A stretch of DNA of 15,555 nucleotides from Candidatus Thorarchaeota archaeon (GCA_003345555.1 PRDJ01000031.1:1-15555), one strand, 5' to 3'; counted from the stretch's first letter, positions 1 to 15,437 are shown. Numbers and translations are program-made. The notes: generated by a model not told the origin, from the letters alone.

Positions 1-790
1 ACCCTCCTCTGGCGAGAGCATCTGGAATTGCACCTGCAAGACCGGCGAAGGAGCCCACGGTTTTCGCGTAAGGGTACGAATCGTCAGTGACTCTGCCTGC
101 CAATGTGGTGCCGAAGTCAAGAGCCATGACAGGGTTCCGGAAGTCGATGTCTGAACCTTTGACGGCGCCTTTGATTCCTGCTGTGACAAGCTCTCCTTCC
201 ATCTCGTTCGCAACAACCTCTGCACTAGAGGGAGGAAGTGAGCTAGCGACTGCTCCATCAAAATAGACCTTCTTGAGCCAACTGAAGTCTCTGACATCTT
301 CCGGCAGATTCTCCGGGGAAATTGAAGCCGCCATCTTTCGCGGTGGAACTCCTGCAGCAATGCAACCGTCAGCGAGCGCTTTCACCATCTCGCCGACCTC
401 CACGGGCTTTGAGAAACCAGCCGTCACCCCGGTAGATCTTACCACGAAGTGAAGGTCTCTCTCCATGTCAAGATGAGCATCATGTAGGACAGATAGGAGA
501 ATGTCTGAAACGAGTTCCGAGACTGATTTTCGCGTTAGTTCCACACCTGTAATCGTTCTGCCGAAGATGTCCTCGCCATCCTTGGGGGATCTCACGTCCC
601 TTGTGAAGCGAACCTGTTTCGCTATCTCGAAGATTTCAGCTGTGCGGAGATTGGTGCTTACTAGGATGCACTTTGTCGTTGTGTTGCCGAGTTCCACGGA
701 AGCCACCGTGTAAAAAGGACCCGTCCTCAGAGATCCTACCCCTATTGTTCGGGGTCTTATGACCGTAGCACGGTGTGACGTTCCTAACAC
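1..790 (-). CDS. Methanogenesis marker protein 14 (DUF2114 family; ASKHA/actin-like ATPase fold), 3' end truncated by the window edge
   Basis: Not in the ORF track; translated by hand. Open from GTG at 790 (6 nt after the mtrH stop, preceded by GGGGT) to the edge, 263 codons: VLGTSHRATVIRPRTIGVGSLRTGPFYTVASVELGNTTTKCILVSTNL...LHFVVRSTGVTAGF...ALADGCIAAGVPPRKM...FDGAVA...VVANEMEGELVTAGIKG...DFRNPVMALDFGTTLAGR...GLAGAIPDALARG. These blocks match the marker-14 family as I recall it. ELGNTTTK and LDFGTT resemble ASKHA phosphate-1 and phosphate-2 loops. Confidence 0.85.
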   Translation of the reverse strand, partial: MLGTSHRATVIRPRTIGVGSLRTGPFYTVASVELGNTTTKCILVSTNLRTAEIFEIAKQVRFTRDVRSPKDGEDIFGRTITGVELTRKSVSELVSDILLSVLHDAHLDMERDLHFVVRSTGVTAGFSKPVEVGEMVKALADGCIAAGVPPRKMAASISPENLPEDVRDFSWLKKVYFDGAVASSLPPSSAEVVANEMEGELVTAGIKGAVKGSDIDFRNPVMALDFGTTLAGRVTDDSYPYAKTVGSFAGLAGAIPDALARGG

Positions 791-796
791 ACCCCA

Positions 797-1732
797 TCAT
801 AACAACTTGCGGAATGGATGGTTCTCGGAAGGCTGGACACCAAACTCAACGCTTGATGACTCTGCGGCGAAAATATCGGCCATCGCCACAACGGGAAAGA
901 CTGTTCTTGCATTGCTGATTGGCCCATAGAGAATGAAGTTGGCGCCCATCATCTGCACTATCAGGGCAGAAGCCACATCACATGCACGATACGCATCAGG
1001 ATTGGTCTTCTTGTACTTCCGAAGCCAAGACCATGAACTGGGTGCGTTGTGAACCCCAGACCCAGTGGGTTGGCCGTAGAGAGTCTTGGCCACGAATATG
1101 AAGGATGCCGAGGAGCCAGCACCGGCACCCATGGCAGTCGTTGCCGTATCAATGAGAGGTTTTGTGATTCCCACTTCCTCGCCCATTTTCAGCAAGCCCT
1201 TGTCGAGTCCGGGAACTCCATCTTCAAGCACAGCTCGCCTGCCAGCAATCGAGGAGTCGTGAGGATTGAAAGCCAATATCACTGCACAATCATGATGAAT
1301 ATCCTTCAGAGATGCAAGCTCGTCCTTTGTGATGGAGACACTGATCGAATTGTAGATGGCCCTGTCTAGGAGACCGACCTCCTGAGCATGCCTCAAACCC
1401 GCAATCCGCACCTCAGGGCTGGTCGAATCGATAAGAAATGGCGCGTCTGTGACCTCAGCAACGAAATCAAGGTACTTTGTGACTGCCTTCTCAGATTCGG
1501 AAAACACTTGGACAAGAGCAGGATTGCCTGTGGTGTCTGACATCTCATCTTGAACTCGGATTAGCTCCGTCGCGGCCCTCTTGTCAAAGACGCCTTTCCG
1601 AGCATCTTGGACTACGTCGTGCCCACCGTAGAAAATGGTACCAGCAAGAACGGTTGGCATCTCTCCGGGCACGCCTCCGATTCTAATCCCTCCAATGGTA
1701 TGTACAATCTGCTCCTTCTCAAATGCGAACAT
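797..1732 (-). CDS. mtrH: Tetrahydromethanopterin S-methyltransferase subunit H homolog (paralog 1, canonical-looking)
   Basis: 311 aa. N-terminus MFAFEKEQ..IGG..GE.PTVLAGTIFYGGH; motifs FLIDST, IYNSI, LIDTA, GSGVHNAPSSW, NFILYGPI and a C-terminal HPF, all typical of the MtrH/MtxH/MtgA pterin-binding TIM barrel. Confidence 0.93.
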   Translation of the reverse strand: MFAFEKEQIVHTIGGIRIGGVPGEMPTVLAGTIFYGGHDVVQDARKGVFDKRAATELIRVQDEMSDTTGNPALVQVFSESEKAVTKYLDFVAEVTDAPFLIDSTSPEVRIAGLRHAQEVGLLDRAIYNSISVSITKDELASLKDIHHDCAVILAFNPHDSSIAGRRAVLEDGVPGLDKGLLKMGEEVGITKPLIDTATTAMGAGAGSSASFIFVAKTLYGQPTGSGVHNAPSSWSWLRKYKKTNPDAYRACDVASALIVQMMGANFILYGPISNARTVFPVVAMADIFAAESSSVEFGVQPSENHPFRKLL

Positions 1733-1735
1733 ATC

Positions 1736-2431
1736 TCACAGCTCCTTTCCGACAAGTATTGTCCCTGTCTCTGTCCTCTGAACAACGACCGCTATCGTAG
1801 AGGGGTGAGTGGTTACCACTGCGTAGAGGTCTAGCTTCGAGACCAATGAGGAAAACGGATCTACAGAGAGACCATATTCAGGCAGCAGCGCAATAGCGGA
1901 ACCTAATCCTCTCGGGGCTGCCCTTCCGCGTTTAGCCTTGAACTCGACCCACAATGCTTCGCCTCCAAATGGGCCGGGATTCTTTGAGGTCAGTTCGCGA
2001 GCGACCCGAGCAATATCGTCGGGGTTCGTGACATCTATCATGTCTATGAGTTCTACTTGCATCCTGAATCGCTCAATCGCTTCTGTTGGCAGGTTCTCAA
2101 CATAAGGGATGGCTCCTTCGGCTTCGACTATCTTCCGGGTTTCCTTGTCAACGCCCTTCTGATGAAGACATCGTACCGATGAGCCGGTCTTGTGACCAGG
2201 AACCTCTGGTCCTGCCAAAACGAGGTATCTGATGCAGGGATTGGATACTATGTTAACAATCATTCGTTCTATTCCGATGTTCTCAGTCTTGCAGGTGCCG
2301 ATTATGGCGTAGTCTGAATCAACATCTATCTTCTTTCCAAGGGTGCATATTGCGATGCACGAACCAGGATTCTTAACTTCGAAGTCGCCAGGAATCGGCG
2401 GCCATTCCCGCTTCTCAGCACTCGTAACCAT
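1736..2431 (-). CDS. mtrA: MtrA/MtxA-like cobamide methyl-carrier protein, soluble (no C-terminal membrane anchor), with a ~65 aa C-terminal extension
   Basis: 231 aa. WPPIPGDF, G.CKTENIGIE, NIVSNPCIRYLVLAG.EV.GH.TG (His80 matches the cobamide axial-ligand His of MtrA), GAIPYVENL. RBS GGAGG at 2443-2439 overlaps the upstream stop. No long hydrophobic segment at the C-terminus. Confidence 0.92.
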   Translation of the reverse strand: MVTSAEKREWPPIPGDFEVKNPGSCIAICTLGKKIDVDSDYAIIGTCKTENIGIERMIVNIVSNPCIRYLVLAGPEVPGHKTGSSVRCLHQKGVDKETRKIVEAEGAIPYVENLPTEAIERFRMQVELIDMIDVTNPDDIARVARELTSKNPGPFGGEALWVEFKAKRGRAAPRGLGSAIALLPEYGLSVDPFSSLVSKLDLYAVVTTHPSTIAVVVQRTETGTILVGKEL

Positions 2432-2442
2432 AGCAGAACCTC

Positions 2443-3360
2443 CTACTCGAACGACGGCGGCTCGAAAATGGGATGACTTAGTCCCAATGCCTGCTGCGCT
2501 TCAGCGATAGCTGCAGCCATTGCATTTGCTATCAGCGCTGTCGCGGTGAATACTTGCTTGGTCCTTGCCATCGATCCGTACATTATGCAGTCAGTGGCGA
2601 ACAACTGGGCAGCAACAGTCGAAGCTACAATCGCCGAGGTCTGGGTGATCTCGTCATCAAACCCAGCCTGCTTTATGAATTTCCAAGCAGAGGGGGCATT
2701 GTGAGGTCCCAAGCATGTCGGCAGCCCTAATTCCGACTTGATAGCAAGCACGGTTCTGTATTCCAGTCCGTACCCTGCGCCCACCGGCATTGTGGCGGGG
2801 TCTACAACCATCTTCTCGATGCCGATCGCCTTGGCCTCGTCAATCATTGACCGAATCGTCTCCATCCGGTCAGGCAGACTCATCGCCTTGGGTGACCAAC
2901 CAAGAACCACAGCCATCTTCAGAGAACTGTTTCGAAGCAACTGCTTCTCATCATCCTTCATGGACAGATTGATTGAATTGTATATGGCCCTCTTGCTCAA
3001 GCCGGTCTCGTGGCAGTATTCTATGGCCTTCTTTCGCGCATCACCACTTGTTGATTCGAACATAAACGGACCATCGAAGTTCTCACCGAGCCACGACAAG
3101 TGATTCTCCATTGCCTCAGGCGTCCGACCAAAGGCTTGAATGATAAGCGGGTGGCCTGTCTTCTCAACCATCATCTTGGCTGTATCAATCCACTGCTTGG
3201 TCATTTCCTTGTCAAACGTGCCTTCCTTCGCGCTCTTGACGATAGGCTGCGTAGTAAAGAAGAGCCCTCCAATCAACACGGTGGGGTTCTGTCCGGGTTG
3301 GCCGCCAACCGTCACGCCGCCGAAATCAAAAGCCTGCTGCTCCTTCTTGAAAACGAACAT
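2443..3360 (-). CDS. mtrH: MtrH-family methyl-pterin:corrinoid methyltransferase (paralog 2, divergent)
   Basis: The track ORF starts at 3432 inside metF. The likely start is ATG 3360 (MFVFKKEQQ..., matching paralog 1), preceded by TGAGGT overlapping the metF stop; 305 aa. Motifs GGQPGQNPTVLIG, FEST, IYNSI, VVDPAT, GPHNAPSAW, IMYGS, HPIF. Confidence 0.88.
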   Translation of the reverse strand: MFVFKKEQQAFDFGGVTVGGQPGQNPTVLIGGLFFTTQPIVKSAKEGTFDKEMTKQWIDTAKMMVEKTGHPLIIQAFGRTPEAMENHLSWLGENFDGPFMFESTSGDARKKAIEYCHETGLSKRAIYNSINLSMKDDEKQLLRNSSLKMAVVLGWSPKAMSLPDRMETIRSMIDEAKAIGIEKMVVDPATMPVGAGYGLEYRTVLAIKSELGLPTCLGPHNAPSAWKFIKQAGFDDEITQTSAIVASTVAAQLFATDCIMYGSMARTKQVFTATALIANAMAAAIAEAQQALGLSHPIFEPPSFE

Positions 3361-3371
3361 CGTTCTCAACC

Positions 3372-4385
3372 TCACTTCGGTCTGGGGTATAACCCCGAAG
3401 CCTTCACTAGCTCCGGGATGCTCTCTTCCCATCCGATGGCCATGATATGAATGCCATTGATTCCACGAATCATCTTCACTCGGTTGATTGTCTCCAAAGC
3501 GACTGCAATACCCTCAGCACGGACCGCCTCTTTCTTCTCTTCGCCTTTCATTCCTGCGCCAGCAGACTCCAGACGATTAACTATCTCGTCGGAAATCCTA
3601 ATGCCGGGGATTCTCTCATTCATGAAGCGAGCCATCTTCGGTCCTTTCAAGGGGATTACACCTGCCAGTACCTTGACGCCCAATGGCTCAATCTGCTCCA
3701 TGTACTCTTCGAGTCGGGCAGTATCATAAATCGCCTGAGTCTGAAAGAACTGAGCCCCTGCATCACGTTTCTTTTCTACACGCCAGACTTGGAGCTCAAG
3801 CGGGTCAGCATTTGGATTGAATGTCGCACCGAGATGGAAAAGCGGTATGCCCTCAAGCTTCTCCCCGGCCAAGTCCTTCCCCGACATCAGATGACTGGCG
3901 AGCTGTAGGGCTTGGATGGAGTCCAGATCATACACCATCTTTGCCTGAGGATGCGATCCTAGGAGAGTGTGATCGCCCGTAACGAACAGGATGTTGCGAA
4001 TCCCTAGTGCGTATGCACCATAAAGCTCGCTCTCGAAGAGGATGCGATTCCTGTCTCTGGAAGACATCTGCATGACTGGCTCGGCGCCAGCCTGAATGAC
4101 AAAGTGAGCACATGCCATACTGCTCATAGTGGGAATACCGCGGACGTTGTCAGTGATGTTGATTGCGTCACAGTAATCCTTGACGAGACGTGTTCGTTCT
4201 CTTACTAGGTCATCATCAGCGCCATGCGGAGGTCCGACTTCTCCTGTGACAGTGAACTTGCCACTTCGAAGCATGCGCCTGAGCTTGGTTTCTGGTGATT
4301 GCACGCTGTTCTTCAATCTGGCGTCGAAAGACCCCGTCTGAAGACTGACACATATCTCCTTTGGTTGAGCGATACAGGAGTACAT
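3372..4385 (-). CDS. metF: 5,10-methylenetetrahydrofolate reductase, MetF subunit (MetVF type)
   Basis: Motifs TGEVGPP, AINITDN, SRDRN, TGDH, FFQTQ, LAGVIPL, GIHIM. GGAGG lies 5 nt upstream of ATG 4385, which supports that start. GTG 4304 (VQSPETKLRRML) is an alternative closer to the usual family N-terminus. Confidence 0.92.
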   Translation of the reverse strand: MYSCIAQPKEICVSLQTGSFDARLKNSVQSPETKLRRMLRSGKFTVTGEVGPPHGADDDLVRERTRLVKDYCDAINITDNVRGIPTMSSMACAHFVIQAGAEPVMQMSSRDRNRILFESELYGAYALGIRNILFVTGDHTLLGSHPQAKMVYDLDSIQALQLASHLMSGKDLAGEKLEGIPLFHLGATFNPNADPLELQVWRVEKKRDAGAQFFQTQAIYDTARLEEYMEQIEPLGVKVLAGVIPLKGPKMARFMNERIPGIRISDEIVNRLESAGAGMKGEEKKEAVRAEGIAVALETINRVKMIRGINGIHIMAIGWEESIPELVKASGLYPRPK

Positions 4386-4433
4386 ACAGTCCTCCAGCAG
4401 CCAAGATGCACGAAACCAATGGATTCTCTCTTT

Positions 4434-5090
4434 CTAGGCTTCCTCATGGACTACCGAGTGCGGGCCCTGAGACAAGCTCCAGTCCTTTATCTCCCAGATT
4501 GACTTCAGTTTGTCGAGCTTTCCTAGCTTCTTTAGTCGATCATAAATAAGCTGCCAAGCGCAGTCTGTCTCCGGATCTCTCTCGCATTTGCCATTCATCG
4601 AGCCACCACATGGACCATTTAGGATACCTTTCGCACAGCGGGCGAGCGGACAAATGCCACCGGTCAAGTCCAAAATGCATTCACCACACATGATACAGCG
4701 CTCTTGGTGAACAAACCGTTGTGGCATAGTCCCGAGGAACTTCGAATCAGTGGCTGGAAAGGACTCCTTCTCTGGTATCAGTTCTGTGACGTTTTGAGTC
4801 GCTACACCGCATGCCTGTATCAAAAAAGCTTCGGCCTCATCGAGTATCGCCCTATTGTTCTCCATCTCCTGTTTGACAGCATTGACATCGCATATTCCGC
4901 CTTGAACGAATATCTTGCCCAGGACCTGCTTATTGTGCTGTCGCAGAAAATCCTCCATGTCTTCGAGTTGAAGTATGCCGCCCACATCACACATCTGAGC
5001 ACAACCTGAATCACCAAAGAGGACTATCTTCTCGTATCCCTCCAACATCCGGAGAATCTCATCTGGTGATTTCAATTCCATGGCAATCAT
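4434..5090 (-). CDS. metV: MetV, Cys-rich small subunit of methylene-tetrahydrofolate reductase
   Basis: Cys cluster ERCIMCGEC..TGGICPLARCAKGILNGPCGG..GKCE..DCAWQLIYDRL, directly upstream of metF. Start chosen at ATG 5090 (MIAMELKSPDEI) because it fits the family N-terminus. The track's ATG 5129 abuts a TATA-like box. Confidence 0.88.
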   Translation of the reverse strand: MIAMELKSPDEILRMLEGYEKIVLFGDSGCAQMCDVGGILQLEDMEDFLRQHNKQVLGKIFVQGGICDVNAVKQEMENNRAILDEAEAFLIQACGVATQNVTELIPEKESFPATDSKFLGTMPQRFVHQERCIMCGECILDLTGGICPLARCAKGILNGPCGGSMNGKCERDPETDCAWQLIYDRLKKLGKLDKLKSIWEIKDWSLSQGPHSVVHEEA

Positions 5091-5130
5091 AGAGAGGACG
5101 TCACTCGTACTAAGTCGTCGATACTGCATC

Positions 5131-6580: not shown

Positions 6581-8653
6581 TTGAGCCAGTTTGAGATTCG
6601 TGCTAAGGATGGACTTGCTCGTCTTGGCAGGTTCGAGACCAATCACGGAACAGTCACAACGCCCCTCCTGATGCCGGTCGTCCATCCGGGGAAATCAGAG
6701 GTAACACCAAGTCAGCTGGTATCCGAGTTCAAGTTTCAGATGGTCATAACTAACGCATACATCATCAAATCCACAGACCGCTTCAGAGACGCGGCACTTG
6801 ACAAGGGAGTGCATTCACTTCTCAACTTCAGCGGGCCCATCATGACAGACTCCGGGACGTTCCAGATGTACACTCATGGTCTTCCGGAGGGAGAGATTGA
6901 TCCTATGGACATCGTGAGCTTCCAGCGGCAAATTGGTTCGGATGTCGGTACAATCCTTGACACGTTTTCGGACCCCTATGCTACATGGGCTAGAGTTGAG
7001 CAGGATGTACAAGTGTCAACGGAGAGAGCTAGAATATCCATCCCCGTAAAGGGAGACATGCTTCTTGCAGGCACTGTCCAAGGAGGCATATACCCAGATT
7101 TGCGAATCAGAGCAGCTGACGAGATGGCGCCTCTGAATATCGACGTTCATCCTATTGGCGGTCTCGTGCCTCTCATGGAGCAGTATCGCTATGCTGACAT
7201 TGTGAGGGCAACCCTTGCGGCTAAGTCGCACCTTCCGCCTCAACGTCCAGTCCACCTCTTCGGATGCGGTCACCCGATGTTCTTTGCACAGGCGGTTCTC
7301 ATGGGCTGCGACCTCTTCGACTCGGCATCTTATGCCAAATTTGCGGAATCGGGCCGACTGTTGTTTCCCACCGGCACTGTTCACCTGAGCGACCTCCGAG
7401 AGTTGCCATGTGAATGCCCTGCGTGCAACAGCACAACAATCGATGATTTGCAACGCCTAGATAAAGCGGCGCAGTCGCTCATTCTTACGAAGCACAACCT
7501 GTATGTCAGCGCAGCCGAGATCAGGAGAGTGCGACAGGCGATTGCCGACGGCAATCTGTTAGAGCTTGCTGCGTTGCGCGCCCGGAGCCACCCAGCACTC
7601 TATGAGGCCCTGGATATTTTTCTTGAACAAATAGGAAACATAGAATCGTCGGCACCTAGTGCAAACGCAAAGTCGGTTTTCTACACGGGTCCCGAGACAG
7701 CAAGACATCCGCTACTCAGAACCTTCCAGTATAGAATCCTCGAGCGATATCCATTCAGAAGAACGAGGATGCTCGTGATGGTGCCTGACATGGGTGCCAA
7801 ACCATTCTCAGAAACCAATCAGGCAATCGAGAACGAAGTGAAGATGCGTGACCCTGCCGAGATGCTCTTGTTCTATGTCACACCTATAGGAGTGGTCCCG
7901 TGGGAACTGGAGCATGTGTACCCCGCCCAACAAACCATCTTTCCTGCGAGTGTGGATTCTGAGTGCCTGACTGCAGCTGGAGAAAGCCTGACTAGACTGC
8001 TGAGTACAATGGAATTCGATGACTGCATGTGGGTGTCGAGAGAGACACCGACCAATGTGCTGTCGGCGGCGACCGGACTGAGTGATAGAGCGACCAAGGT
8101 GTCAGGGGTTTCTGAGCTATCGCAAATCCTGCCGGCGGCAAGCCACCCGCAGCTCTGGCAGAAGAGAGTGATAGCGGGTGTCTGTGCCTTTCAGTGGGAT
8201 GTAAGAGACATGGACAGCTTCGGGCTCAACGAATTAGGAATAACCCTCTCTTCGTCAACAGGCAAGATACGGCATATCACGCGAAATGGCAAGGTGCTCT
8301 TCACGTTGGTTCCAACCAATGGACTACTGACCCCGACATACGACGGCGGCAGGCTTCTTCTGAAGTCGGGCCTGAAGGACGATTACAAGGTTGTAGTTGA
8401 CGATGATGCCGCTCCGTTTGTAGCGGATGGCAAATCCGTCATGACCAAGTTCGTCAAATGGGCCGGCCCGCATCTGATGGCGGGTGAGGAAGTGCTCGTT
8501 GTTGATTCCAAAGGCGAGTTCTTAGGATCCGGAAAGGCCGTTCTAAATGGCAGAGAAATGATGGCATTTAGGCGGGGTGTCGCTGTCATCATGCGGCACT
8601 CGAAGAAACAGCCGCCGGTTGACTATAAAGAGGATGACCAGGAATCTTTCTGA
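6581..8653 (+). CDS. tgtA: Archaeosine tRNA-guanine(15) transglycosylase with C-terminal PUA domain
   Basis: 690 aa, TTG start with GAGGA upstream. Motifs DGLARLG, TPLLMPV, MTDSGTFQ, HPIGG.VPLME.Y, HLFG.GHPMFFA.AV.MGCDLFDSASY, Zn site CECPAC...H, and a PUA-like C-terminus (GKSVMTKFV..GEEVLVVD..G.AVLNG.EM..F.RGVAV). Confidence 0.95.
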   Translation: MSQFEIRAKDGLARLGRFETNHGTVTTPLLMPVVHPGKSEVTPSQLVSEFKFQMVITNAYIIKSTDRFRDAALDKGVHSLLNFSGPIMTDSGTFQMYTHGLPEGEIDPMDIVSFQRQIGSDVGTILDTFSDPYATWARVEQDVQVSTERARISIPVKGDMLLAGTVQGGIYPDLRIRAADEMAPLNIDVHPIGGLVPLMEQYRYADIVRATLAAKSHLPPQRPVHLFGCGHPMFFAQAVLMGCDLFDSASYAKFAESGRLLFPTGTVHLSDLRELPCECPACNSTTIDDLQRLDKAAQSLILTKHNLYVSAAEIRRVRQAIADGNLLELAALRARSHPALYEALDIFLEQIGNIESSAPSANAKSVFYTGPETARHPLLRTFQYRILERYPFRRTRMLVMVPDMGAKPFSETNQAIENEVKMRDPAEMLLFYVTPIGVVPWELEHVYPAQQTIFPASVDSECLTAAGESLTRLLSTMEFDDCMWVSRETPTNVLSAATGLSDRATKVSGVSELSQILPAASHPQLWQKRVIAGVCAFQWDVRDMDSFGLNELGITLSSSTGKIRHITRNGKVLFTLVPTNGLLTPTYDGGRLLLKSGLKDDYKVVVDDDAAPFVADGKSVMTKFVKWAGPHLMAGEEVLVVDSKGEFLGSGKAVLNGREMMAFRRGVAVIMRHSKKQPPVDYKEDDQESF

Positions 8654-13254: not shown

Positions 13255-13569
13255 CAATCACCACTTTCAGATAGACTTCATCCAGAAAAAGAGAGACGAG
13301 CACCATGTCATCTCTTTTACTGGTCCTTCAAACAACAATGGGCCGAGAGGCGATATTAAAGGTTTGTCACTGACGAGGGCGTTCAGATGTCGGAATACAG
13401 GTTGTCCGAAGAGTCGGTAACAAAAAGCCTGTGCAGAACAATGCTATCGTCACGGACCGCCGTTTGTGTTGCCCTTCGCGTCCCTAAAAGTCTAAATAGT
13501 GCACCTGACAGCCCGAAGTCATCCTCTCAATACCTCGCTCTGAGGAGAAGAGGAGGAGATGAATATATA

Positions 13570-14607
13570 GTGAGAGCAGGAAACAACACACGCAGGATTG
13601 GATCAATCCTGATCATCGCCGCTCTGCTTGCACCATCTCTCGCGCTGTTAGGTATTGCCCCTGTTCCAGCTCGTGCCGCGACACAGGTTATTGTCTTTGA
13701 CATGGGCCACGGACAATACAAGGCCGCGGTCTTCACTGCACAAGACGCGTGGCTGGCAGGCAACCTGACCGCGTTGGGATACCAAGTGATATGGGCATGG
13801 GGCGGAATAAACGCTAGCATCCTGTCTAATGCGACAGGACTTGTGCTCGGTAGTCTGTATGGGCCTTCGTACAATTTCAGCACAGCTATGGTTAACGACA
13901 TCACAACATGGTTCAATTCGGGGAAGAAGTTCCTCTGGGTTGCAGGAGACTCGGACAATGCTGGCAATGGCCCAATCGCTAACGCGAGCGTAGTCCTCGA
14001 TGCGGTTGGCTCACACGTCTATGTAGAACCTTGCTCCGTGGAGGACCCGATTTCGAGCGCCGGCTCCGCGTATCGAGTAGTCGCCAACAAGACCAGCACA
14101 AATGCCTACGTTGCCGACCTAGTAGGGAATACTACTAAAGTCTTGATGCATGGCCCGACTACCCTTTATGGCAGCACAACTGGACACAAGGACGGCGGCA
14201 TAGTCAGTCTGGAGAACACGACTATCGCGAACGTCTACCCAGTACTCTACTATGGCGGATCTGCTGTAATAGTCGACCCTGACCTCATTCCTCCTGTTGC
14301 TCATACAGCAGGTCAGACCGGCTCATTCACAGCAATGACTGTCGAGGTCAATGCAGGCAGTGGCCAAAACGGAGTCATCGCTGTATCAGGTGCATCACCG
14401 TATGCTGACTACATGCCAATGACCTGTCAGCTGTACTACAACGTGACCATGAATGGCCAGCTTCTGGTGAGGCAGACTATCGACTGGGGCATGAAACTAG
14501 CCACCTACACTACTGTGACACCAGTCGACTACACCCTATATATCGGCATAGGAGCTGTTGCAGTAGTCGTCGTATTGGCCCTAGCGTTCTTCCTGAGAAA
14601 GAAGTAA
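13570..14607 (+). CDS. Secreted, C-terminally anchored cell-surface glycoprotein; possible DUF4350/GldG-like (class I glutamine-amidotransferase-like) fold
   Basis: Likely start GTG 13570 after GGAGGAG, giving 345 aa (the track start at 13387 adds a non-protein-like 61 aa). Signal peptide VRAGNNTRR-IGSILIIAALLAPSLALLGIAP-VPARA/A. VIVFDMGHGQ motif, 9 N-x-S/T sequons, Thr-rich linker, TM helix and LRKK tail. The fold call is tentative. Confidence 0.75.
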   Translation: MRAGNNTRRIGSILIIAALLAPSLALLGIAPVPARAATQVIVFDMGHGQYKAAVFTAQDAWLAGNLTALGYQVIWAWGGINASILSNATGLVLGSLYGPSYNFSTAMVNDITTWFNSGKKFLWVAGDSDNAGNGPIANASVVLDAVGSHVYVEPCSVEDPISSAGSAYRVVANKTSTNAYVADLVGNTTKVLMHGPTTLYGSTTGHKDGGIVSLENTTIANVYPVLYYGGSAVIVDPDLIPPVAHTAGQTGSFTAMTVEVNAGSGQNGVIAVSGASPYADYMPMTCQLYYNVTMNGQLLVRQTIDWGMKLATYTTVTPVDYTLYIGIGAVAVVVVLALAFFLRKK

Positions 14608-14657: not shown

Positions 14658-14804
14658 CTCTCCTGCGGTTAAGCCAGTAGTGAGAAGCAGAGTTGCTGCA
14701 ACAAGAGCATCTGTGCGACTGTTTTCCTGTAGTCGCCGAGACTTGATAATCTTCATATACGTTATAGACGCATGAAGTAGTGCTTGATTATTGGGGGCAG
14801 ATCC

Positions 14805-15437
14805 GTGTCGGACGAGATGAGACTGGAAGAGAAGGAAAAGAACATTGATACAAGCGTAATCTACTCGTTTGGATCCGCGATAATTGAGTTCGAGGATGTC
14901 ATCTTCCAGAAGTTTCTAGTCATGTCAGGCGTGAATTCTATCACTACCAAAGAGCAGTTCGGGAGAATTCTATCGAGAATGCACTCGAAGGGCTATATCG
15001 CGCCCCTTGAGTTTCTTGGCAGAAAAGCTTGGAGAAGGCTTGTGGTCGAGGACAGATTGGAGGATAGACTTGACCCCATATCTGTTCAGAAGAGATCTGG
15101 GGACATCACAATGCCGTCGAAGCCAGAGAAACTCCAAAGGGAACGTGACGAACGACTCGTGAGCGAGTCGAGACTCATTGCAGAGGATCTCCTGAAAACC
15201 ATGAGAGGAAAGCTACTCGGCGGCCGCGATCTCGATGCGAAAGCAAGGCAGGTGCTAGTGAGACATGCCGCCGAAATGCGTAAGGCACTGACCGATTCCA
15301 GAGAAGAACTCCTCAACTATGTCCGCTCTAATACCCCTTCCATGAGTGAACCCATGCAGAGAATACTCAACTCCAAGGGAGAAGACGTTCTGCTGCTTAG
15401 CCTGCGTCTCATCGAGACGGGATATGCAAGCTCGTGA
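14805..15437 (+). CDS. Hypothetical protein, possible N-terminal winged-helix domain plus helical C-terminal domain
   Basis: Long open frame (track 14784-15437). GTG 14805 after GGGGG is the preferred start and ATG 14817 an alternative. QFGRILSRMHSKGYIAPLEFLGRKAW resembles a wHTH recognition helix and wing. No recognisable family. Confidence 0.55.
   Translation: MSDEMRLEEKEKNIDTSVIYSFGSAIIEFEDVIFQKFLVMSGVNSITTKEQFGRILSRMHSKGYIAPLEFLGRKAWRRLVVEDRLEDRLDPISVQKRSGDITMPSKPEKLQRERDERLVSESRLIAEDLLKTMRGKLLGGRDLDAKARQVLVRHAAEMRKALTDSREELLNYVRSNTPSMSEPMQRILNSKGEDVLLLSLRLIETGYASS

Follow-up and report, generated by a model that had tools for sequence, protein, structure and literature searches.

A conserved thorarchaeal operon uniting a methylene-pterin reductase, soluble MtrA, two MtrH paralogues and marker 14: a candidate folate-linked corrinoid methyl relay

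At the left end of a 15,555-nucleotide stretch of DNA from a Candidatus Thorarchaeota archaeon (G000:C31:1-15555, where G000 is the host genome and C31 the contig; hereafter the window, at whose left edge the contig, too, ends) lie six minus-strand genes, arranged head to tail and identified by open reading frame (ORF) and profile searches as encoding a MetV-like protein, MetF, MtrH1, MtrA, MtrH2 and marker 14. The reading that we favour – tentatively, and with a little less than even confidence – is that this operon specifies a membrane-free, Mtr-derived soluble corrinoid methyl relay linked to folate, with marker 14 as a candidate reactivator. The gene cluster itself is real, conserved and partly published: canonical MtrAH and marker m26 – the marker 14 of this text – were reported in Thorarchaeia as remnants of methanogenesis by Adam et al. 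in 2022 (PMC9635834), where the proposal for thorarchaeal MtrAH went no further than 'a methyltransferase in a mixotrophic lifestyle'. The suggestion in our initial annotation of the window that the architecture was uncharacterised was thus too broad for the canonical MtrAH and marker 14, and stands for its remaining parts: the second MtrH paralogue, the linkage to MetF and the changed MtrA tail were not found described in the literature searched, the coverage of which is incomplete and no proof of absence. The host assembly comprises 2.28 Mb in 82 contigs and is 93.5% complete.

The six genes follow one another with gaps of 48, 11, 11, 3 and 6 nt, and two stop codons are overlapped by ribosome-binding sites – that of MetF by TGAGGT and that of MtrH1 by TAGGAGG – all exactly as first annotated; GGAGG also lies 5 nt ahead of the MetF ATG. 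MetF (PF02219) and the Cys-rich MetV (PF12225), separated by the first of these gaps, form the gene arrangement typical of MetFV-type methylenetetrahydrofolate reductases. A sigma-70 promoter and terminator scan, of a kind ill-suited to archaea, returned no more signals than shuffled sequences.

The arrangement read from this single window recurs widely. The core order MtrH1–MtrA–MtrH2–marker 14 is identical in all 24 relatives' loci (51-96% protein identity, at least 16 genera), which argues that it is not due to chance; MetF lies directly upstream of MtrH1 in 23 of the 24, and MetV stands beside MetF in 13, with a displacement of 2-5 kb in two more. The operon is under purifying selection (dN 0.13-0.25, with dS saturated), and MtrH1 is the best conserved protein of the core, with a mean identity outside the genus of 67%, compared with 64% for MtrH2 and 55% for MtrA. 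MtrA itself was detected in 24 of 24 genomes of the family, Thorarchaeaceae, and was not found in its sister family. Among 121 Asgard genomes, MtrH1 orthologues are confined to Thorarchaeaceae (17 of the 17 sampled) and a single genome of another family, G033; the best 120 matches of an MtrH homologue search, all at least 69% identical, are from Thorarchaeota wherever labelled, bar one Lokiarchaeota label. In G033, the MtrH1–MtrA–MtrH2 triad is found on a 3.8-kb contig (L039, G033:C86:1-3778), with an MtrH1 that is 48-49% identical and keeps the hallmark residues, and an MtrA with a similar C-terminal tail; Fhs was not found in this genome (80% complete).

Two further loci deserve a brief mention. 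The closest relative's locus (L002/L018; G003, CAVSBO010000007.1) has apparent frameshifts in HflX, MetF, marker 14, CofE and LarC and intact MtrH1, MtrA and MtrH2 genes, a pattern that long-read assemblies with indel errors typically show, and not one of decaying genes. An MtrA-like locus from Chloroflexi (L006) was dropped as a comparison, its context – MtrA-DUF4346, ABC exporters and chromate transporters – being unrelated.

The ORF and profile search bore out the earlier observation that mtrB-G, coenzyme M (CoM) methyltransferase, substrate-specific methyltransferase (MT1) and mcr genes are all missing from the window. Beyond its left edge, where mtr genes had been thought conceivable, the flanks could be read in relatives: HflX lies upstream of the operon and, past marker 14, a CofE-like ligase and LarC are followed by a family-B DNA polymerase on the opposite strand, so that no membrane-bound protein is encoded there. 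Because the flanks hold CofE and LarC, because profile searches detected MtrE in 0 of 26 genomes and because MtrC and MtrD were not found in G000, we conclude that mtrCDE or mtrBFG do not occur beyond the edge.

The solubility of the system, proposed from the outset, is upheld by these absences and by the proteins themselves, in which hydropathy nowhere reaches the level of a membrane helix. MtrA – the operon copy being the only one in G000 – reaches a maximum 19-residue hydropathy of 1.19 and hence lacks a membrane helix or C-terminal anchor. Its description as a corrinoid carrier is supported as well: the equivalent of the cobalt-ligand residue His84 is kept in the motif EVPGH (aligned to PDB 5LAA; ligand role from PMC4915002), within an MtrA fold devoid of the B12-binding domains PF02310 and PF02607 (a PF02310 protein sits in a separate cluster with MtrH3, described below). 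The AlphaFold2 (AF2) model comprises a Rossmann domain (residues 1-160; predicted local distance difference test score, pLDDT, >90), then a linker of low confidence (160-178) and, at 180-230, a beta module of five strands that, as modelled, would take the place of the stalk and membrane helices of methanogen MtrA. Conserved residues of this tail region include W161, F164, P184, E185, G223 and T224.

The two MtrH proteins, only about 33% identical to each other, differ in how closely they follow the canonical form. MtrH2 aligns with Methanosarcina mazei MtrH (PDB 9QTP) at 271 bits, while MtrH1 falls below the curated cut-offs (TIGR01114, 238 versus 271 bits; also the NF002142 and MtgA models) and scores alike against MtrH2, M. 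mazei MtrH and PDB 8Z9U (176-178 bits), with 144 bits against MtgA. Residues were compared across 24 orthologue pairs, with roles taken from the M. mazei Mtr structure (PMC12774963) and from MtgA structures (PMC7154762). Both paralogues keep the pterin-ring residues N129, D196, H229 and N230 (M. mazei numbering) throughout, these being, in MtrH1's own numbering, the invariant N128, D187, H220 and N221. MtrH2 retains T32, Y35, Q75, D102, N128, D195, H228 and N229 together with the basic patch R238/K241/K242; the corresponding patch (R239/K242/K243 in M. mazei, proposed to hold the tail of tetrahydromethanopterin (H4MPT) or tetrahydrosarcinapterin; PMC12774963) is lost in MtrH1. In place of the catalytic Asp (Asp103 in M. 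mazei), MtrH1 has an invariant Glu102 – and an MtgA D102A mutant is inactive (PMC7154762). G32, F35 and Q38 are fixed in MtrH1, against T/S, Y and H/D in MtrH2, and H70, R79, W155 and C216 are further fixed residues. Altogether, MtrH1 has 36 fixed positions at which MtrH2 differs, many of them beside the active site.

Of the residues named as contacts of MtrA and the corrinoid (bioRxiv 10.64898/2026.07.03.736320), MtrH2 keeps F155 and E79, and MtrH1 has an aromatic W155 and M191-P192. From sequence, a single soluble corrinoid carrier served by two different sites is plausible, since both MtrH proteins keep the pterin-ring residues, yet MtrH1 carries 36 fixed differences, including the Asp-to-Glu exchange and the lost basic patch. 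The initial annotation's 'two different pterin methyltransferases' survives in so far as the proteins are distinct and both have pterin-ring residues, with tail surfaces and active-site residues that differ between them. A complex prediction with MtrH1, MtrH2 and MtrA, run without controls, scored MtrA as a partner at 0.26, below the mark of 0.32, and counts neither for nor against binding.

The last constituent of the core, marker 14, adjoins MtrH2 in all 24 loci. The full-length orthologue of a relative (L003:9636-11072; 593 bits, TIGR03285) gave an AF2 model with pLDDT 90 that has an ASKHA fold, with a Z score of 18.1 to MK0840 and of 15-17 to BcrAD/HgdC-type ATPases, FtsA and Kae1. A PDB sequence search returned no match, RACo was absent among the best 50 rows of the fold searches, and a profile search found no Fer2 or RACo domains, with DUF2114 the sole match. 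The family is very small, with 125 clusters out of 1.8 billion representatives, and includes the orthologues MJ1451 and MTH_1153. As m26 (DUF2114; arCOG04866, MMP1223), it has been linked with Mtr through its distribution and synteny, Thorarchaeia included (PMC9635834 and its supplement).

The connection to folate comes from the one-carbon carriers of the host, whose gene complement is folate-only. Fhs and FolD lie side by side on contig C1 of G000, and a folate-type dihydropteroate synthase (DHPS; TIGR01496, 220 bits, cut-off 163) stands beside GcvT and GcvH. Profile searches of G000 did not find Ftr, Mtd, CdhC/acetyl-CoA synthase (ACS), β-ribofuranosylaminobenzene 5'-phosphate (RFAP) synthase, TIGR00284 (an H4MPT-type, DHPS-like family) or McrA, nor Mer above its cut-off (best 195 versus 349 bits). 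Three congeners of G000 have Fhs, and in them Ftr, Mer above the cut-off, CdhC, RFAP synthase and TIGR00284 were not found. At the scale of the family, Fhs and folate-type DHPS are present in all 16 genomes sampled (G000 and 15 relatives), whereas the 15 relatives hold Ftr in 9 cases, Mer in 9, CdhC in 4, TIGR00284 in 2 and RFAP synthase in 1; given this patchiness, the operon tracks the folate branch rather than the H4MPT branch or ACS. The expectation that hosts would carry both pterin branches thus fails for G000 itself, an outcome that the initial annotation had named in advance as refuting its proposal.

Several genes resembling those of the H4MPT branch nonetheless occur in G000 and its relatives. 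G000 has an orphan Mch (methenyl-H4MPT cyclohydrolase; G000:C18:34472-35407, L013:8458-9417, 351 bits), as also found in Halobacteria (PMC9635834), with an IS605 OrfB/TnpB-type gene (Cas12f1-like TNB domain; L013:5358-6512) about 2 kb away. A Mer-like F420-dependent oxidoreductase of the luciferase family (G000:C6:2160-3137, L015) aligns over its full length to Mer models at 206 and 195 bits, below the cut-offs; this paralogue is family-wide and occurs also in genomes with true Mer. Seven relatives (G005, G007, G008, G009, G011, G012 and G015) carry Ftr, Mer and folate-type DHPS – G005 and G008 also CdhC – and in these RFAP synthase (TIGR00144) and TIGR00284 were not found.

A further MtrH-family protein of G000, MtrH3, belongs to what looks, from its sequence, like a conventional corrinoid methyl-transfer module without an adjoining MT1 (G000:C42:26527-29916, L012:9528-12917). 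Like the folate-using MtgA, MtrH3 has Asp75, and the 'MtrH family protein' model gives it 281 bits; after it come a RACo/AcsV-like activase with 2Fe-2S, RACo middle and ASKHA domains and then an MtgC/MtbC-like corrinoid protein. A 437-aa ORF past this cluster was rejected as an MT1, being NurA-like and part of a HerA/NurA/Mre11 set.

In the scheme that we infer – for the methyl-transfer steps, the direction of flow, the assignment of the MtrH proteins to folate, the physical complex and the role of marker 14 alike – MetF, together with MetV, would interconvert methylene-tetrahydrofolate (methylene-H4F) and methyl-H4F. That MetFV would act on methylene-H4F rather than on methylene-H4MPT is suggested by the folate-only gene complement, although the MetF type of ANME-1 (an anaerobic methanotrophic archaeal group) is a precedent for possible use of H4MPT (PMC9012536). 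MtrH2 would exchange the methyl group between methyl-pterin and the Co(I) of soluble MtrA, which, by means of its flexible linker and small C-terminal beta domain, could carry it to MtrH1. MtrH1 would in turn exchange it with a second, probably pterin-like substrate, H4MPT being unlikely in G000; its pocket still has a pterin-binding look, with an active site and a tail surface that appear re-tooled. Marker 14, as an ASKHA-fold ATPase, is a candidate ATP-dependent helper that might return oxidised Co(II)-MtrA to Co(I).

Four points weigh against this scheme. The sequences of MtrH1 and MtrH2 mark neither as folate-specific, since MtrH2 retains the basic patch and both have Gln75, as in MtrH, where the folate-using MtgA and the host's own MtrH3 have Asp. 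The known consumers of methyl-H4F (ACS, MetE and MetH) were not found in G000, nor was an MT1 that could be its source: no MT1 lies in the window and MttB was not found in the genome, in a search made for that MT1 family. With the genome 93.5% complete, each of the gene absences is to be read as 'not found'. Finally, marker 14, unlike RACo and RamA, has no Fe-S domain, and the ASKHA fold is a generic one.

A more specific form of the favoured relay – one that we hold to be rather improbable – would be a self-contained, MetH-like modular relay built from Mtr parts. Here the methyl group of methyl-H4F would travel by way of MtrA and be handed on by the lineage-specific MtrH1 to an acceptor that is not part of the Wood–Ljungdahl pathway (homocysteine or, in the few relatives that make it, H4MPT), and marker 14 would be an ATP-dependent corrinoid reactivator of a new kind, common to this relay and methanogen Mtr.

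Whether MtrH1 and MtrH2 form two separate half-reactions at all bears on the first of the rival explanations, namely that they make up a heterodimer working on one pterin and merely loading or unloading MtrA, the other half-reaction being carried out by a protein encoded elsewhere: a substrate-specific MT1 feeding oxidation through MetF, FolD and Fhs, or an acceptor enzyme. MtrH and MtgA are indeed obligate (homo)dimers whose active sites face apart, with one MtrH of each pair thought to serve MtrA (PMC12774963; PMC7154762); Fhs yields ATP when running oxidatively; and the MtrH3–RACo–MtgC/MtbC-like module of G000, a second corrinoid module, implies that corrinoid methyl traffic into folate exists in this organism. 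This explanation nonetheless seems to us rather unlikely. The pterin-ring residues of MtrH1 are invariant and the protein is the most conserved of the core, which argues for catalysis of its own rather than a scaffolding role, and an MttB-family MT1 was not found in G000.

The second rival takes MtrH1 as the acceptor side of a MetH-like, four-module methionine or thiol methyltransferase, in which MetF would make methyl-H4F, MtrH2 would serve as the pterin module, MtrA as the corrinoid module and marker 14 as the reactivation module. Its appeal lies in a metabolic gap: MetE (PF01717) and the homocysteine S-methyltransferase domain (PF02574) were each found in 0 of the 16 family genomes, no known methionine synthase being detected there, and in a host without ACS, methionine synthesis is the sole known use of methyl-H4F. 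S-adenosylhomocysteine hydrolase is present (G000:C33:38260-39504), hence homocysteine is made in G000; the operon is universal in the family; and the corrinoid methyl donor of archaeal methionine synthesis is an open question (PMC9012536). The gap is, however, not specific, as several other Asgard genomes lack MetE, the homocysteine domain and MtrA together, and, when sought, a complementary pattern between the operon and known methionine synthases did not emerge among Asgard genomes. In MtrH1, moreover, the pterin-ring residues are retained and a clear zinc-thiolate site is not seen, a single Cys being conserved close to the active site, and auxotrophy would account for the gap more simply. 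We therefore judge this rival unlikely.

The initial annotation had itself favoured a third explanation, in which MtrH1 and MtrH2 act on different carriers to give a Na+-independent methyl-H4F:H4MPT transmethylase, feeding archaeal carbon monoxide dehydrogenase/ACS from the folate methyl branch, or the reverse, and so joining the two branches of the Wood–Ljungdahl pathway. The two distinct pterin-type sites fit it, MtrH2 having the full canonical signature and MtrH1 a different tail surface, as does the adjacency of MetF and MtrH1. So do certain genomes: G010 and G013 have Ftr, CdhC and TIGR00284, with Mer not found, and G033 combines the triad with RFAP synthase, Ftr and TIGR00284. The host and its genus tell against it: they appear to be folate-only, G000 with an orphan Mch; the H4MPT-branch and H4MPT-biosynthesis genes were not found in either, nor Mtd and McrA in G000; and methyl-H4MPT would lack both a source and a sink there. 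The operon is, furthermore, intact in 24 of 24 family genomes, while CdhC, Ftr and Mer are far from universal. For the organism studied here, this explanation has accordingly become quite unlikely; for G010, G013, G033 and the ancestor of the family, a bridge between H4F and H4MPT is possible.

Least probable of all is that the whole operon works on H4MPT, with MetF(V) replacing Mer as proposed for ANME-1 and MtrAH a remnant of methyl-H4MPT:CoM transfer: MetF of the ANME-1 type groups with its counterparts from uncultured archaea, Asgard among them, and may act on H4MPT (PMC9012536), and MtrH2 and MtrA are canonical (PMC9635834), but searches of G000 did not find H4MPT-biosynthesis markers, MtrE or Mcr, the genome does encode folate synthesis and folate enzymes, and nine relatives retain true Mer alongside the operon.

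The coordinates and profile matches of the six genes are collected in the table.

Table. Genes of the operon in the 15,555-nucleotide window, in order of transcription.
Feature	Position	Strand	Details
MetV-like small subunit, MetFV-type methylene-pterin reductase	4434..5129	-	231 aa, Cys-rich C-terminal domain; PF12225/DUF5981, 118 bits, residues 124-218
MetF, methylenetetrahydrofolate reductase (MTHFR) family	3372..4385	-	337 aa; PF02219, 117 bits, full length; NF006396 MTHFR part, 224 bits
MtrH1, diverged MtrH-family TIM-barrel methyltransferase	2443..3360	-	305 aa; PF02007, 242 bits
MtrA, soluble corrinoid carrier	1736..2431	-	231 aa; PF04208, 186 bits; NF002126, 171 bits (cut-off 161)
MtrH2, canonical-type MtrH	797..1732	-	311 aa; PF02007, 391 bits; TIGR01114 equivalog, 403 bits (cut-off 271)
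Marker 14/DUF2114 (m26 of Adam et al.)	2..790	-	N-terminal 263 of ~478 aa, cut by contig end; TIGR03285, 381 bits (cut-off 274)

The assembly of G000 contains neither the 3' half of marker 14 nor the orthologous CofE and LarC. In most relatives' loci, marker 14 is followed on its own strand by the CofE-like gamma-glutamyl ligase and by LarC, the nickel-pincer cofactor insertase (L003:11143-13484, for example). The operon-linked ligase scores 188 bits on TIGR01916 (cut-off 181) and 104 bits on a model named 'putative folate metabolism gamma-glutamate ligase'; as G000 carries two other CofE paralogues (on C67 and C11) at 36-37% identity, the operon-linked copy may differ in substrate.

The remaining ORFs of the window encode HflX, an archaeosine tRNA-guanine transglycosylase (TGT), an ABC transporter and two proteins without a Pfam match. 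The transglycosylase, TgtA, lies at 6581-8653 (+) and scores 487 bits; a second TGT-related protein (DUF5591 and PUA domains, ArcS-like; L012:3262-5205) is encoded near the MtrH3 cluster on contig C42. The unmatched ORFs lie at 13387-14607 (+; 406 aa) and 14784-15437 (+; 217 aa), and the former, with hydrophobic stretches at its N- and C-terminus, may encode a surface protein.

Methanogenesis has in Mtr its central energy-conserving enzyme, and the operon offers a test system for what its MtrAH remnants, and marker 14 with them, do in non-methanogens. Canonical MtrA and MtrH, a re-tooled MtrH, a methyl-pterin reductase and marker 14 make up a compact soluble set that can be expressed and assayed without membranes. 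A second site with a new acceptor, if true, would amount to a new corrinoid methyl-transfer reaction in Asgard archaea, and homocysteine, should it be that acceptor, would fill the family-wide lack of MetE and MetH. Reactivation of MtrA by marker 14, likewise if true, would also answer a long-standing question about methanogens.

The closest of the known systems is thorarchaeal MtrAH as already published (PMC9635834): the genes and the lineage are the same, and MtrA and MtrH2 are canonical by their hidden Markov model scores. In the text and supplement of that study, as searched, a diverged second MtrH is not mentioned, nor are a MetF(V) linkage, an altered C-terminus of MtrA or the fact that some genera have a folate-only background. 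Soluble MtrA and MtrH without membrane subunits are known from other non-methanogens, from Methanomassiliicoccales ('MALP'; PMC6147122), from Sifarchaeia and Jordarchaeia (PMC9723677) and, as MtrA–MtrH fusions, from Atabeyarchaeia and Freyarchaeia (PMC11291895), with various guessed functions, such as moving methyl groups between a pterin and another carrier (PMC6147122, PMC9723677, PMC11291895, PMC8407382). Where those have one MtrH or a fusion and a non-canonical MtrA, the operon described here has a canonical pair accompanied by a lineage-specific MtrH, MetF and marker 14.

The reductase half recalls the MetFV of acetogens and of ANME-1 and uncultured archaea (PMC9012536), with which it shares the MetF–MetV gene pair. 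It differs in being encoded with corrinoid methyl-transfer proteins instead of Hdr/Mvh, Rnf or folate-biosynthesis genes, and in that MetV is missing alongside MetF in about a third of the relatives. The overall order of methyltransferase, corrinoid protein and methyltransferase with a reactivating ATPase is that of three-component systems – MtgABC of Desulfitobacterium hafniense, whose MtgA is an MtrH-family enzyme methylating H4F (PMC7154762), and Mta, Mtb and Mto – to which the MtrH3–RACo–corrinoid protein module elsewhere in G000 is also similar. In the operon, by contrast, the carrier has the MtrA fold rather than PF02310, both transferases belong to the MtrH family, and the ATPase is a DUF2114 protein without Fe-S rather than RACo or RamA.

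By functional analogy only, the operon also resembles MetH, which likewise combines two TIM barrels with a corrinoid carrier and a reactivation module, four modules in all, and is fed by MetF, although a sequence relationship was not detected and a homocysteine/zinc site is not evident. It is with the methanogen and ANME Mtr complex (MtrABCDEFGH) that the kinship of parts is plainest: a His-on corrinoid MtrA, an MtrH TIM barrel with the same pterin-ring residues, and the co-occurrence of marker 14. The operon departs from that complex in dispensing with MtrB-G, the membrane anchor, the MtrE/CoM half-reaction, Mcr and Na+ coupling, and in having a second MtrH where MtrE would act.

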